Of a DNA stretch of 64,000 nucleotides, positions 15,402 through 63,751 are shown piece by piece; position 1 is the first letter of the stretch, and each line of letters begins with the position of its first letter. This DNA is from Escherichia coli (lineage in GTDB: Bacteria > Pseudomonadota > Gammaproteobacteria > Enterobacterales > Enterobacteriaceae): assembly GCF_016026235.1 (NCBI RefSeq), contig NZ_CP065613.1; one strand, given 5' to 3'. The notes under the pieces were generated by a model that saw only the letters and a program-made list of their open reading frames with translations, was not told where the DNA came from and searched no databases. A program made the translations under genes and the position numbers.

Positions 15402-15532
15402 ATTCACTACCTGTTAGTAAATGACTGCTTGCTGGCGGCTATTTTGTCAGCACTGAATACAGGACTTCGTGAATCGAGTCACAGCAATGGAAACGGTTAC
15501 AGCCGTTTTGTTAACGAATGTGATCCAGATCG

Positions 15533-27902: not shown

Positions 27903-28844
27903 TTAATGGGTTTTGATGTAGCCGCGCACGCACTCTTCGACTAAGCCCCAGAACCAGTCGGTATCAATAGTGATGCCGACTTTGGTATTAGCGGGCTTGC
28001 CAAGAACGCCCAGCTCGTCGCAGACGGTACGCCCATAGCAAGGGCCACTGTTGACGTCCACTTCGACGTACATCTCCTGGGTTTTAATGCCATCAGGGTT
28101 AATCAGATAACCGATGCAGGTGGCGTCGTGCACCGGGCCGCCAGCCAGGCCGTAGTTTTCGAACTGGGTTTTGAGAGTGAAGTTCATGATGTCGCTGAAC
28201 AGCTCTCCGGCAGGGCCGCCTGCCCTTTCCATTCGTGCAATCACGTCCGGGGTGCAAACGGTCTGGTTGGTAAGATCGAGGCCCATCATCACTAATGGAA
28301 CGCCAGAAGTGAACACCACGCGTGCGGCTTCCGGGTCAGCAAAGATGTTGAACTCGGCAGATGGCGTGAAGTTGCCTGTACCGTAAGCGCCGCCCATTAG
28401 CACAATTTCACGAATTTTAGGCAGGATCGCGGGTTGCATACGCATTGCCACCGCGATATTTGAAAGCGGACCAACCGGCACCAGAGTGATATCGCCATCG
28501 CTTGCCATCAGGGTATCAATGATGTATTTCACCGCGTGGGTACTTTCTGCCTGGCGGGTCAGCGGCTCGAATACCGGGCCATCCAGTCCGGTTTCACCGT
28601 GAATATTATCGGCAACGATTTGTTGACGCATAATGGGTTGCGGCATCCCCGCATAAACCGGAACATTAATCTCCAGTTTCTGGCAAACATTCAGGCCATT
28701 AATTAATGTTTTATCAAGCGTCTGATTACCCGCTACAATAGTGATGCCTAATAAATCTATTGCCGGATGTTTCGCTGCCATCATCATTGCAATAGCATCA
28801 TCATGACCCGGATCACAATCCAGAATAATTTTTCTCTTTTCCAT
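27903..28844 (-). CDS. rihB: Pyrimidine-specific ribonucleoside hydrolase
   Basis: 313-aa ORF with the nucleoside hydrolase N-terminal aspartate motif DCDPGHDDA. Confidence 0.9.
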
Positions 28845-29012
28845 TGTTTATTTCCTCTGTTTCCAGTTGCGTTATTTTTTCTACAGCAAAGAAAATTCGA
28901 CCGGGCCGATGATTGAATCTTAACAACAGCGTACGTATGCTAAATATGAGAAATCTCACAGCGGATAAACATCGTGAAAGAAATCCACAATAATGATCTT
29001 AAGCTGCAATTG

Positions 29013-29672
29013 ATGAGTGAATCCGCGTTTAAGGATTGCTTTTTAACGGATGTTTCAGCCGATACGCGGCTGTTTCATTTTTTAGCGCGTGACTACATTG
29101 TGCAGGAAGGGCAACAGCCGTCCTGGCTGTTTTACCTGACGCGAGGCCGCGCCAGGCTTTACGCCACGCTAGCTAATGGTCGCGTGTCGCTGATCGATTT
29201 CTTTGCCGCCCCCTGTTTTATTGGTGAGATTGAGTTAATCGATAAAGACCATGAACCGCGTGCGGTACAGGCTATTGAAGAGTGTTGGTGCCTTGCGCTC
29301 CCTATGAAACATTACCGTCCGCTGTTATTAAACGACACCCTATTTTTACGAAAACTTTGCGTCACCTTAAGTCATAAAAATTATCGTAATATTGTTTCTT
29401 TAACTCAGAATCAATCATTTCCGTTAGTGAATCGCCTGGCAGCATTTATATTACTCTCACAAGAAGGTGATCTTTATCACGAAAAGCATACGCAAGCGGC
29501 AGAGTATTTAGGCGTTTCTTATCGACATCTTTTATATGTTCTCGCGCAATTCATTCACGACGGTTTATTAATTAAAAGCAAGAAAGGATATCTAATTAAA
29601 AACAGAAAGCAGTTGTCAGGGCTGGCGCTGGAGATGGACCCGGAGAATAAATTCTCCGGGATGATGCAGTAA
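29013..29672 (+). CDS. yeiL: CRP/FNR-family transcriptional regulator YeiL
   Basis: ORF 28974..29672 (GTG); conserved start [11 protein letters not shown] at ATG 29013; cNMP-binding-like domain plus C-terminal HTH. Confidence 0.85.
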
Positions 29673-29695
29673 AAATTATTTGCAATAGCGCGATT

Positions 29696-29732
29696 GCCGG
29701 ATACAACGCTTGATGCGTTTTATCCGGTCTAC
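29696..29732. repeat. REP-like palindrome downstream of psuT
   Basis: gccggatacaacgcttgatgcgttttatccggtctac between convergent yeiL and psuT. Confidence 0.55.
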
Positions 29733-29742
29733 AAATTGAGCA

Positions 29743-30993
29743 TTACGCCAGACCAATAAAGAACCCGGCAATGGTCGCGCTCATCAGGTTGGAAAGCGTT
29801 GCTGCTGCCAGCGCCCGTAAACCAAGCTGAGCGATTTCCGGTGCACGTTTTGGCGAAATAGCCGAAAATGCGCCAACGACAACACCGATAGAACCAAAGT
29901 TAGCAAAACCACAAAGCGCAAAGGAGATAATCGCAATGGTTTTCACTTCCAGCGTGCCGCCCGTTTGCAGGTATGGGGAGAAACTCAGGTAAGCGACGAA
30001 TTCGTTAATCGCCAGTTTCTGCCCAATCAGGCTACCCGCAAGGTTGGCATCACTCCAGTCCACACCCATGATCCACGCCAGCGGTGCCAGCACATAGCCA
30101 AAAATACTTTCCAGAGAAGCATTGGTAAAACCAAACCAACCGCCAATTCCGCCGATAATGCCATTAATCAGCGCAATAATTGCGACAAACGCCATTACCA
30201 CCGTCGCCACACCGGCGGCGATTTTCAACCCGGTCATCGCACCGCTCGCCGCCGCTTCGATAAAGCTTTTTGGCGGCGTTTCACTGAACGACAGATTTTC
30301 AAATGTGACCTGCGAAGGCTCGGTTGCCGGACTAAGAATACGTGCAAACAAAATACCGCCGGGGATCGCCATCAGCGATGCCGCCAACAGGTAGTCAATT
30401 GGTACGCCCATTCCGGCATAACCAATCATCATCGAACCCGCAATGGACGCCATCCCGCTACAAATTGCGGTAAACAACTCGTTGCGATTCATGCGATCGA
30501 TAAACGGTTTAACGATCGCCGGGATCTCATTTTGCCCGAGGAAAATAGTAGTAACCGCAACAAAAGATTCGATTTTGCTGATGTTGAGGGCTTTCTGGAA
30601 AATGCTGCCAAGGATGCGAATCAGCAGCCCCATCACGCCAATGTAGTACAGCAGACTGATGAGCGCAGTGACGAAGATAATCGCCGGGAGTACGCGAAAG
30701 GCGAAGATAAAGCCTGCGCCATCAAACAGGACATCCATTTTCGGCCCAACCAGCGAACCAAAAATGAAGGCGCTACCGGCATCACTGTAAGACATCACTT
30801 TATGAACACCTAATGCCGCCTGTTCTACTGCCCATTTTCCCGGCGGAAAATAGAGCATGATGCCACCAATAGCGATTTGCAGCAGCAGTGCGGCTCCAAC
30901 CGTGCGCAAACTGATGCTCTTTTTATTTACCGACAACAGAAATGCTATTGCCAGTAACACCACCATCCCCACAACACTTCTCATTATATCCAT
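29743..30993 (-). CDS. psuT: Putative pseudouridine transporter (CNT family)
   Basis: 416-aa ORF; paralog of nupX. Confidence 0.9.
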   Translation of the reverse strand: MDIMRSVVGMVVLLAIAFLLSVNKKSISLRTVGAALLLQIAIGGIMLYFPPGKWAVEQAALGVHKVMSYSDAGSAFIFGSLVGPKMDVLFDGAGFIFAFRVLPAIIFVTALISLLYYIGVMGLLIRILGSIFQKALNISKIESFVAVTTIFLGQNEIPAIVKPFIDRMNRNELFTAICSGMASIAGSMMIGYAGMGVPIDYLLAASLMAIPGGILFARILSPATEPSQVTFENLSFSETPPKSFIEAAASGAMTGLKIAAGVATVVMAFVAIIALINGIIGGIGGWFGFTNASLESIFGYVLAPLAWIMGVDWSDANLAGSLIGQKLAINEFVAYLSFSPYLQTGGTLEVKTIAIISFALCGFANFGSIGVVVGAFSAISPKRAPEIAQLGLRALAAATLSNLMSATIAGFFIGLA

Positions 30994-31086: not shown

Positions 31087-32021
31087 TTAACCCGCGAGAC
31101 GCTGATATTCTTTGGCAATTTCGCTCGCCAGAATGGCGTTGTTGAACACCAGCTGGATGTTGGATTTCAGGCTGTCACCGCCGGTCAGCTCAGCAACGCG
31201 CGCCAGCAGGAATGGCGTACTTTCTTTACCAATAACACCCTGCGCTTCAGCTTCAGCTACCGCCTGATCGCCGCATTGATAGTGTGTTCCGGCATAGCAA
31301 ACTGTTCCGGGATCGGGTTCGCTACCACGAGGCCACCGTTCAGCCCGCTTTGCCATTTCACCGCCATTGCACGGGCAATTTCGCTGGCGCTGTCGAGACG
31401 AATGCTGACGTCAAACGGGCTGGTACGGCAGAAAAACGCAGGCAGCGCTTTAGTCTGATAGCCAATTAACGGCACACCGAAGGTTTCTAAATACTCAGTG
31501 GTTAATCCTAAATCGAGAATAGATTTCGCCCCGGCACAAACAACGGTGACATTAGTATTTGCCAGTTCTTGCAAATCGGCAGAAATATCGAAGGTATGTT
31601 CCGCCCCGCGATGAACACCACCAATTCCCCCGGTGGCAAATACTTTAATTCCGGCAAGCGCCGCAATAATCATCGTTGAAGCCACAGTGGTTGCGCCATT
31701 TTTTCCGGCGGCAACAACAAAAGGTAAATCGCGACGACTAACTTTGGTCACGTTATGCCCTTCACGACCCAGTAATTCAATTTCTTCTTTGCTTAAACCC
31801 ACTTTCATCACGCCACCAATAATGGCGATAGTGGCAGGTACTGCGCCCTGTTTACGAATAGTTTCTTCAACTTCAATTGCGGTCTGGGCATTTTGTGGGA
31901 ACGGCATCCCGTGAGAAATAATGGTCGATTCCAGCGCCACAACCGGTTTTTTGTTTTTTAAAGCGTCCTGCACTTCCGGGGAAATTTGTAATAATTCAGG
32001 GGAAATTTTTAATTCAGACAT
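31087..32021 (-). pseudogene. psuG: Pseudouridine-5'-phosphate glycosidase with a disrupted reading frame
   Basis: N-terminal 252 residues in ORF 31257..32021 (ends ...PEHTINAAIRR*); conserved C-terminal 60 residues DQAVAEAEAQG...EYQRLAG are in another frame (ORF 31087..31356). Frames meet at plus 31261-31274 cgcctgatcgccgc. Confidence 0.75.
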
Positions 32022-59865: not shown

Positions 59866-59942
59866 CGGCACGTAGCGCAGCCTGGTAGCGCACCGTCATG
59901 GGGTGTCGGGGGTCGGAGGTTCAAATCCTCTCGTGCCGACCA
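59866..59942 (+). tRNA. proL: tRNA-Pro (anticodon GGG)
   Basis: 77-nt CGGCACGTAGCGCAGCCTGGTAGCGCACCGTCATGGGGTGTCGGGGGTCGGAGGTTCAAATCCTCTCGTGCCGACCA with cloverleaf-compatible stems, GGG anticodon and encoded CCA end. Confidence 0.9.
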
Positions 59943-60042: not shown

Positions 60043-62634
60043 TCAGAACGTCCAGACCACACCCGCCTGGGTATTCCACGGCGATTCTACCCCTGCGCCA
60101 TTGCCATAGCTGACTGACAAATGACCGCTTAACGTCGGGGTAAACGATGACCTTATCCCAGCCTGATAAACGCCACTGGTTCCAGCCACATCATTATTAA
60201 ATTTGCCATCGTCATTAACTTTCACCTGGTTAGAATCGGCGTATTCCTGACGTACGGCGGCTTTCAGCCAGGGTTCCAGCGTCGTACCGTTTTGCAGGTC
60301 CATGTGATAGCTTACCGCCGTTCCCGCTTCAGCGCGTAATATCCGGGTATTTCCCACATCCGCGCGCATGCCGTTTGATAACGTGTAGTCCTGACCATCT
60401 GTGGTAAAGCCGGTAAAGGCCAGATAGGGTCTAACACTCCACAATCCGTCAACCCAACGGAACCCGCTCTCAACATGAGCACCCGCGCCGTTACTATTGT
60501 AATCGCCAAACGCTGTTGCCCCATTACTCATCTTGCCATGGATGGTGTTGGCAAAACGGTCAACTTTCACCACCCCATCAACATAGGCACCGTTCTGATG
60601 CTCCCAACCGGCATAAGCCCCCAGGGTATAGCTATCGACATTGCCTTTGCCGCCGCGATCAAAACCAATATCAGAATGAGAGTAACCAAAGAACAAGCCG
60701 CGAATTGTGCTGCTTTCTTCACGGGAGAAACGGCTATCGATACCGAGCGTCAGGCCCGTCAATGTTTGCTCAAAACCAGCTCCCGCATCAGTGGTCACGT
60801 TGTTGCGGGTGTTAATTGCCGAACTCCACATCGCCGTATCGTAACTAACGCCTTTTACGCTACCAAGACGCTCACGCACGGTGTCCAGTTCTGCATCAAA
60901 TACCAGCGGTTGTGCTGCCGCCATATTTAGCACATCAGTGGTTGAAGGGGTAATTTGCGCGCGATTCTCTGCCAGACTCCAGCTATGATTGCCATTATCC
61001 AGCAAGGTATATTCATACGTACCGATATCAACAACGCCTCCGGCATTGCCCAACGTAAATGCAGCATCACCGCCGCCCGTTGTTACCAGTGTAAGGCTAT
61101 CTCCTGCTGCCGGGCTGGCACCGGTGTCCGTCACGAATATTTTGAAATCACCTGTTGCCTGGCCAGTGACGTTAAGCTGATCGCTCTGATGATTGGCCAT
61201 ATCGGTACGCATATAAAAATTGCCGTTTCCCGACAGGGTATTGGTGGTCAACGTTATGAAATTTTCCGCACTTGCCGTCACTGATGAACGAGTCACTGGC
61301 TCAGCCATCATAATCACATTTGCGCCAGACATCGCAAGGTTGGCTAAGTTGAGGAGGGTGTTTTGGTTCGTCGTAGTGATATTGGCAATGATGGTCCATG
61401 CGCTATTTTCGAGCGAAACATCCGCTTTGCTGGTATCCACGGCACCATGCGTTCTAAAAGAAGCGCCCTCAGAAACCACGACCTTACCCACCAACATAGC
61501 GGGTGCATAATTTATTTGCGGCTTCATGACCTCAAGAATGCCATCATTCCCTCTGACTGAAACGTTAACCATTGTGCCAGCCCAGACGTTAGCGCGGCCA
61601 TTGTTGATAACCATATTTTCAGAGATGGCTTTAGAGGAATACGTTATACTTCCATTCTGATCTGATCGACCGAGATCATATACCGCATTTGCCTGCACTC
61701 TCGTACCAGTATCCTTTCCCAGCGATTGCATAGTGGCATGCTCATCAAGGATAGTGTCAATGGCCTGCGTGTCCTCCATAACAATGAGCCCGGAACCATC
61801 ATCCAGTTCATAATTTTTTGACACACCATCTTTTATACTAAATTGGCCTTTACTGTTTGTACCACTCACTTCCAGCGCATTCGTTGAGACAATTAATTTT
61901 CCGCCTGCTTTTTTATCAACGCCAGTTGCAGTCCCGCCATCCATAACCTCCAGTAAGCCGCCACTATCTACAGTAGTATTATAAGCGAAGTCATTTTCTT
62001 CAACTCGCAAACTTCCGCCGTTTTCCAACAGCATATTGTTAGCAATACCATTCTTGATTTCGAACTGACCGAGACGGTTTGTTCCGAATACCTCCATGAC
62101 CCGCGTGCTTGCTTTAATAGCACCGCCTGCTTTCTGATCTACCGCAATCGCTAATCCCCCCTCTTTAACCTCCAGTAATCCTCCCTTTTCGATAGCGGCA
62201 AGGACGGTAATCCCATCTTTTTCAACGATTAAGCGCCCGCCTTTAATCGTGGGATCATTCGCTGCGCCATAAACCTGTAGCACACCATTATTGAGGGTAG
62301 TCTGGTTTGCCGCGCCACCCATTTGAACAATTTGATAACCATCATTTAATACGGAGTATTCTGCGGTGCCATTCATTTCAATGTACTGATACCCGCCGTT
62401 AATTTCAGTATTACTACTTATACCAAATTCTTTAATATGCTGTTCTCCGCCAGGATTGATTTTCGTATTATTGGCGGTCCCATAAACCAGCTGGATATCT
62501 TTTTCCAGGACAACACCATCAACTGTCTCACCATACTCAACTGTTGATGCCAATGCTATGGGTGAATATAACGCTGTAGCCACCAGAACAGATATTGCGG
62601 AACGACAAAGAGAAACAGAACCAGATTGATGCAT
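60043..62634 (-). CDS. yejO: Type Va autotransporter (adhesin-like) YejO, uninterrupted
   Basis: 863-aa ORF with signal peptide MHQSGSVSLCRSAISVLVATALYSPIALA, repetitive Gly/Asn/Thr-rich passenger and C-terminal beta-barrel ending ...QAGVVWTF. Confidence 0.85.
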   Translation of the reverse strand: MHQSGSVSLCRSAISVLVATALYSPIALASTVEYGETVDGVVLEKDIQLVYGTANNTKINPGGEQHIKEFGISSNTEINGGYQYIEMNGTAEYSVLNDGYQIVQMGGAANQTTLNNGVLQVYGAANDPTIKGGRLIVEKDGITVLAAIEKGGLLEVKEGGLAIAVDQKAGGAIKASTRVMEVFGTNRLGQFEIKNGIANNMLLENGGSLRVEENDFAYNTTVDSGGLLEVMDGGTATGVDKKAGGKLIVSTNALEVSGTNSKGQFSIKDGVSKNYELDDGSGLIVMEDTQAIDTILDEHATMQSLGKDTGTRVQANAVYDLGRSDQNGSITYSSKAISENMVINNGRANVWAGTMVNVSVRGNDGILEVMKPQINYAPAMLVGKVVVSEGASFRTHGAVDTSKADVSLENSAWTIIANITTTNQNTLLNLANLAMSGANVIMMAEPVTRSSVTASAENFITLTTNTLSGNGNFYMRTDMANHQSDQLNVTGQATGDFKIFVTDTGASPAAGDSLTLVTTGGGDAAFTLGNAGGVVDIGTYEYTLLDNGNHSWSLAENRAQITPSTTDVLNMAAAQPLVFDAELDTVRERLGSVKGVSYDTAMWSSAINTRNNVTTDAGAGFEQTLTGLTLGIDSRFSREESSTIRGLFFGYSHSDIGFDRGGKGNVDSYTLGAYAGWEHQNGAYVDGVVKVDRFANTIHGKMSNGATAFGDYNSNGAGAHVESGFRWVDGLWSVRPYLAFTGFTTDGQDYTLSNGMRADVGNTRILRAEAGTAVSYHMDLQNGTTLEPWLKAAVRQEYADSNQVKVNDDGKFNNDVAGTSGVYQAGIRSSFTPTLSGHLSVSYGNGAGVESPWNTQAGVVWTF

Positions 62635-63654: not shown

Positions 63655-63751
63655 GCCTGATGCGCTACGCTTATCAGGCCTACGCGGATCGATCAATTTA
63701 TTGAATTCACACGATTGTGTAGGCCGGATAAGGCGTTCACGCCGCATCCGG
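63655..63751. repeat. BIME: two REP units in opposite orientation
   Basis: gcctgatgcgctacgcttatcaggcctac (63655-63683) and gtaggccggataaggcgttcacgccgcatccggc (63719-63751), between narP and the ccmH 3' end. Confidence 0.7.

Follow-up and report, generated by a model that had tools for sequence, protein, structure and literature searches.

A GATC deletion frameshifts psuG, the pseudouridine-5'-phosphate glycosidase gene, in an Escherichia coli lineage

The psuG gene in the stretch of Escherichia coli DNA analysed here (64,000 nucleotides; referred to as the window) is, with a probability that we put at roughly 0.9, a genuine loss-of-function allele, inherited clonally, of the pseudouridine-5'-phosphate glycosidase gene. 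On the minus strand, from 32021 to 31087, it consists of an open reading frame (ORF) for 254 amino acids and a tail that is out of frame. The ancestral gene would have carried the two-unit tandem tetranucleotide GATCGATC across codons Ile252-Asp253-Gln254 (ATC GAT CAG), and one GATC unit was dropped, most likely via slipped-strand mispairing during replication. The resulting −4 shift changes the frame such that a ribosome past Ile252 would read AGG CGG TAG and stop, giving a product of 254 amino acids that lacks PsuG residues 253-312, about the last fifth of the enzyme. The difference between the window and the reference genes is deterministic and involves no statistical signal.

An earlier, sequence-only reading had described a 254-aa ORF (31257..32021, minus strand) ending in ...PEHTINAAIRR* and had placed the C-terminal 60 residues (DQAVAEAEAQGVIGKES...EYQRLAG) out of frame in a second ORF (31087..31356, minus strand). 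Both are read as claimed in the window and its ORF list, and the plus strand at 31261-31274 is indeed cgcctgatcgccgc. The proposed loss of one unit of GATCGATC is borne out by the alignment with reference genes that had been suggested as a check: three intact E. coli psuG genes have CCTGATCGATCGCC where the window has CCTGATCGCC, and this 4-base gap is the sole indel in 145 aligned columns. Likewise, a pattern scan counted a single GATC at the lesion site of the window as against two per reference, and every best whole-gene match among complete RefSeq E. coli genomes spans 939 bases compared with 935 in the window. Putting GATC back yields the expected 312-aa protein. It is identical at all residues to WP_001292454.1, the common intact allele of E. 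coli PsuG found in strains 2452 and 33F4; the match to the strain 2452 allele includes residues 253-312. The octamer GATCGATC is an 8-bp palindrome with two Dam sites. The GATC that remains contributes the Ile252 codon ATC (31266-31268) to the upstream frame and the Asp253 codon GAT (31267-31269) to the downstream frame, and the premature TAG stop lies at 31257-31259. Coordinates of the features are given in Table 1.

Table 1. Features of the psu operon and of the lesion site in the window.
Feature	Position	Strand	Basis
psuT, NupC/NupG-family nucleoside transporter, intact, 416 aa	29743..30993	-	exact sequence on record
psuG 3' remnant: residues 253-312 (DQAV...QRLAG) and TAA	31087..31269	-	downstream of premature stop, other frame
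Hexamer tandem GCTTCA x2 (+GCT), codes AEAE, adjoins lesion	31244..31258	.	sequence
psuG 5' part: PsuG residues 1-252, then Arg Arg (AGG CGG, out of frame)	31257..32021	-	sequence
Lesion site: one GATC left where intact alleles have GATCGATC	31266..31269	.	alignment and pattern scan
psuK, pseudouridine kinase, intact, 313 aa	32009..32950	-	exact sequence on record under that name

The lesion recurs in other deposited sequences, among them NCBI drafts, a long contig of NCTC type and Logan read assemblies. Four carriers were compared with the window, and CCTGATCGCC is present in all of them. Across 6765 bp that contain the lesion, GCA_001907535.1 matches the window at 100% identity, and 19 more places have the same neighbouring genes. 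An NCTC-type 3.2-Mb contig (GCA_901482675.2, CABEFB020000003.1; here L006) differs from the window by 7 substitutions, the Logan assembly of ERR1082468 (L007) by 114 and GCA_030000655.1 (L008) by 155.

Two features of the site are those expected of slippage: the tandem GATCGATC is perfect in all intact alleles of the window's class that were examined, and the 4-bp gap aligns to one GATC, that is, to exactly one repeat unit. The loss of exactly one unit from a perfect two-unit tandem would thus be the signature of slipped-strand mispairing. Restriction cleavage at both GATC sites followed by religation would give the same product and look alike in sequence; we judged it less likely.

Three psuG haplotypes, with 8-11 differing sites in each pairwise comparison, bear the same GATC deletion. 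The L008 gene agrees with that of the intact strain 2452 at all 935 positions, the gap aside, and in an alignment of 6769 columns no more than one substitution and the 4-bp gap separate the two. The L007 gene has 2 substitutions relative to the intact strain 33F4 and 8 relative to the window. All five differences between the window and L007 within the 254-codon ORF are synonymous, which would fit divergence of the two haplotypes while psuG was still functional and under selection. Independent, recurrent loss of GATC probably explains this distribution best, being more economical than a single origin. It is quite unlikely, in our estimation, that the deletion arose once and reached L007 and L008 by homologous recombination, in which case GATCGATC would not be a site of recurrent mutation. 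Recombination is frequent in E. coli, all carriers share one and the same 254-aa product, and the rihB-psuT flank is strongly mosaic, with 29-46 differences/kb between L007 and the window as against ~9/kb in psuG. However, haplotype-specific sites flank the lesion closely, with gene positions 678 and 783 as the limits in the case of L008 and 597 and 873 for the window versus L007, and hence two transfers would be needed, with tracts below 105 bp where the window or L007 is compared with L008 and below 276 bp between the window and L007. Moreover, apart from the lesion L008 is hardly distinguishable from an intact strain across 6.7 kb, and the common protein sequence merely mirrors a very common allele, the intact form of which is found in 37,438 index blocks. 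One or two assemblies each stand behind L007 and L008, and in principle these two occurrences could be assembly errors; if they were, recurrence would be weaker as a conclusion, and the window's own allele would be unaffected.

In the interval 28257-30993, L007 and the window differ by 46 positions/kb in rihB and by 29 in psuT, compared with 8-11/kb in psuG, psuK and fruA, and this excess divergence would indicate mosaic recombination in the flank.

Recurrent or not, the deletion in the window is hardly an artefact. The sequence-only reading had kept a sequencing error as an option, and for the window's lineage this option is rejected. The exact 254-aa product is already public (CAD7363943.1, SQP93824.1, STM06773.1) and is found in 32 index blocks, from which 24 contigs were read, so that at least 24 contigs, drawn from independent assemblies of differing types, have the lesion. 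The closest complete genome, FDAARGOS_943 (NZ_CP065615.1; 99.9% identity over 60 kb), is collinear with the window over 1-59944 with ~40 substitutions, and the only two indels in these ~60 kb are the 4-bp gap in psuG and a 10-bp indel near 15415; the window sequence is thus not prone to indels. A single small indel within an 8-bp palindrome is admittedly of the type that errors can yield, and the lesion is absent from every complete RefSeq E. coli genome. Given its presence on so many contigs and the scarcity of other indels in the window, we nevertheless regard an error in an actually intact psuG as very improbable and the deletion as inherited.

Carriers of the allele are rare. Among 5426 complete RefSeq E. 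coli genomes, 5406 gave a psuG match with the whole gene as query, and not one of the 5426 has the deletion allele. With a 70-nt query spanning the lesion junction, 2250 complete genomes were matched, all at 80-95% identity, corresponding to the presence of the extra 4 bases, and none at 95% identity or above; the complete genomes outside these 2250 have an allele class without the repeat at this site. In terms of index blocks, 37,438 with the intact allele stand against 32 with the truncated product (~0.1%). A scan of metagenomes for the exact deletion junction returned no match, a zero that is uninformative since the control pattern found just 23 stretches with an intact site. A literature search on psuG and frameshift yielded no description of the lesion; one pan-genome paper lists psuG, psuT and rihB as near-core.

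The consequence for the enzyme can be judged from published structures. The restored protein differs at one of 312 residues from the crystallised E. coli YeiN/PsuG (PDB 4GIJ; also 4GIK, 4GIL and 4GIM), whose operon order is the same, and matches the Pfam family PF04227 with E = 3e-132 (residues 16-306, model positions 1-291 of 291). The window product, by contrast, ends after residue 252 with two additional arginines. It retains Glu31, Lys93, Asp149 and Lys166; Thr270, Leu274 and Asn289 are lost with residues 253-312, as are helices alpha11-13, and the set of catalytic and ligand-binding residues is therefore incomplete. In the covalent intermediate, uracil is hydrogen-bonded by Asn289 only (PMC7722734), and replacement of the equivalent residue in the Arabidopsis orthologue (N308A) leaves 0.52% of catalytic efficiency (PMC10761123). 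[quoted passage not shown] With Asn289, Thr270, Leu274 and these helices gone, truncated PsuG is expected to be inactive or unstable, and by strong inference from the published structures the 254-aa product is almost certainly inactive. A PF04227 match is also on record for the truncated product; however, residues 253-306, roughly the final fifth of the domain, are out of frame, and because the full domain is not encoded in one frame the locus represents a pseudogene of the family and not a functional member. In a scan with NCBIfam models no model matched, the intact protein included.

The lesion would be silent if ribosomal frameshifting or assembly of the enzyme from two pieces still gave active PsuG, which we consider highly improbable. 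A −1 shift at ATC-A would produce a 311-aa protein lacking Asp253 only, and the rare arginine codons (AGG CGG) and the stop codon that follow the site could pause ribosomes. However, the sequence GCG GCG ATC AGG CGG TAG contains no slippery heptamer of the X XXY YYZ type. Recoding is thus unlikely, because restoring the frame requires a shift of −1 (or +2), whereas rare AGG codons promote +1 shifts; a programmed ribosomal frameshift site was rejected as a candidate for the same lack of a heptamer suited to the −1 shift. Translation of the 3' remnant as a second piece is disfavoured as well, since it lacks a separate start at Asp253 and the sole ORF covering it opens with 29 unrelated residues. 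Furthermore, the NCTC relative L006 has lost 6 bp more in the remnant. The additional loss in L006 (AGCTGA; gene-alignment columns 768-773, in L006 only) corresponds to one unit of the adjacent GCTGAA x2 tandem and is a second slippage event, in a remnant no longer translated as PsuG. An inactivating lesion thus remains the preferred reading.

The closest mechanistic analogue of the psuG lesion is probably the CTGG hot spot of lacI. This tetranucleotide frameshift hot spot of E. coli, reportedly described by Farabaugh, Schmeissner, Hofer and Miller in 1978, is said to comprise three units and to yield frequent +4 as well as −4 events under laboratory conditions. Common to both cases are the loss of one unit from a tandem tetranucleotide in a coding region, the frameshift and null allele that result, and the independent recurrence of the event. 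By contrast, the psuG site has two units, only −4 events were observed there, and the natural frequency amounts to ~0.1% of blocks. No three-unit GATC alleles were present among the 23 metagenome stretches bearing the site, all of which have two units. Exact look-ups were made for nine constructs on other PsuG alleles. Products with an added GATC on two repeat-bearing alleles were not on record, and neither was the product of a GATC loss on the P0004 allele; the other six of the seven constructs with a GATC removed are based on alleles that read ATA GAT CAA, that is, without a repeat in the DNA, and their negative look-ups consequently carry no meaning. Only deletions were seen at the site, with no third unit in these small samples, whereas slippage hot spots are typically unstable in both directions. 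A repeat of two units makes a weak hot spot, and the deletion allele is rare.

A phase-variable contingency switch for pseudouridine catabolism, as might be suggested by a tandem tetranucleotide in a coding region at which the same change recurs across backgrounds, can practically be dismissed: the site has two units only, compared with many in known contingency loci, ~20 clone-mates are all OFF instead of ON and OFF being mixed among close relatives, no 3-unit allele is on record in the small samples available, the OFF state amounts to ~0.1% of blocks and to 0 of 5426 complete genomes, and much of the species lacks a repeat at the site.

The repeat is polymorphic within E. coli, as the other major PsuG class (P0003/P0005) reads ATA GAT CAA at the site, with a single GATC and no tandem; the P0003 allele alone is found in 8615 index blocks. 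The two classes are recognized by PEHTINAAIDQ...AEAEAQ together with GATCGATC and by PEESINAAIDQ...AEAEEQ together with ATAGATCAA. Substitutions that distinguish them cluster around the lesion site, in codons 244-262 of psuG (L013-L019 versus L016-L018), and 14 of 57 nucleotides differ in the segment sampled, which suggests that this may be an old recombinant or divergent segment.

As proposed in the sequence-only reading, the lesion affects a single gene, psuK and psuT both being intact: each has the length annotated in the references, and database entries with these names match each sequence exactly. The exact psuT sequence is found on at least 1000 contigs. The 3' end of psuK overlaps the start of psuG by 13 nt, psuT follows psuG as its immediate downstream neighbour in the same orientation, and the order psuK-psuG-psuT and its overlaps agree with annotated references. 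The predicted genotype of the window is kinase-plus, glycosidase-minus; the cell should import and phosphorylate pseudouridine yet not cleave pseudouridine 5'-phosphate. This genotype resembles in outline that of Arabidopsis plants without PUMY, where the kinase is likewise present and the glycosidase absent, the difference being that of plant versus bacterium. Loss of PUMY is said to result in accumulation of toxic pseudouridine monophosphate, a finding attributed to Chen and Witte in 2020. Adverse effects in plants are also mentioned in the abstract of PMC12212127.

In FDAARGOS_943 psuG is inactivated too, albeit by an IS5-family insertion and not by loss of GATC: GATCGATC is intact, and psuK carries in addition the nonsense mutation W58* (L004, 8088-10866). 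Two independent psu inactivations in close relatives hint at relaxed selection on the pathway in this lineage. That loss of PsuG has been repeatedly selected in some E. coli lineages, beyond neutral decay, appears unlikely; this idea rests on the three apparently independent GATC losses together with the IS insertion and the psuK nonsense mutation of the sister genome. A related and likewise unlikely idea is that a PsuK+ PsuG- strain builds up pseudouridine 5'-phosphate to a physiological effect, which would then favour a secondary loss of psuK such as that in FDAARGOS_943.

The psuG allele of the window is a textbook small-repeat frameshift pseudogene of an ordinary kind in a non-essential salvage pathway, and the apparent recurrence at a two-unit repeat is the sole mildly notable addition. 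For annotation, the locus should be recorded as a frameshifted psuG pseudogene and not as the 254-aa "indigoidine synthase A like protein" of some deposited records. The 4-bp deletion is usable as a clonal marker of the lineage, and the site offers a small natural case of recurrent tetranucleotide slippage at two units, for which the repeat-less allele class constitutes a within-species control. If carriers do accumulate pseudouridine 5'-phosphate, one may speculate that they would be natural mutants for the study of modified-nucleoside salvage in bacteria.

Several further observations concern the window and its relatives. At 15415/15416, ~15-24 nt ahead of the ATG of galS (upstream of this minus-strand gene), 10 bp are missing from the window, namely ATGAGATTGC when read in its orientation; these bases are present in all 5425 matching complete E. 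coli genomes and in FDAARGOS_943, and their loss may have altered the 5'UTR or the promoter. L006 has, besides the GATC deletion, an IS1 inserted in yeiL. Collinearity with FDAARGOS_943 stops just after tRNA-Pro (59866..59942), where that genome has an integrase/IS21 island; the window has instead an uninterrupted 863-aa ORF (60043..62634, minus strand) and a 225-aa ORF, which we take to encode a putative autotransporter and a putative response regulator, respectively. Finally, the window contains 257 GATC sites overall, and the sole GATCGATC octamer left in its 64 kb is located at 63687-63694.
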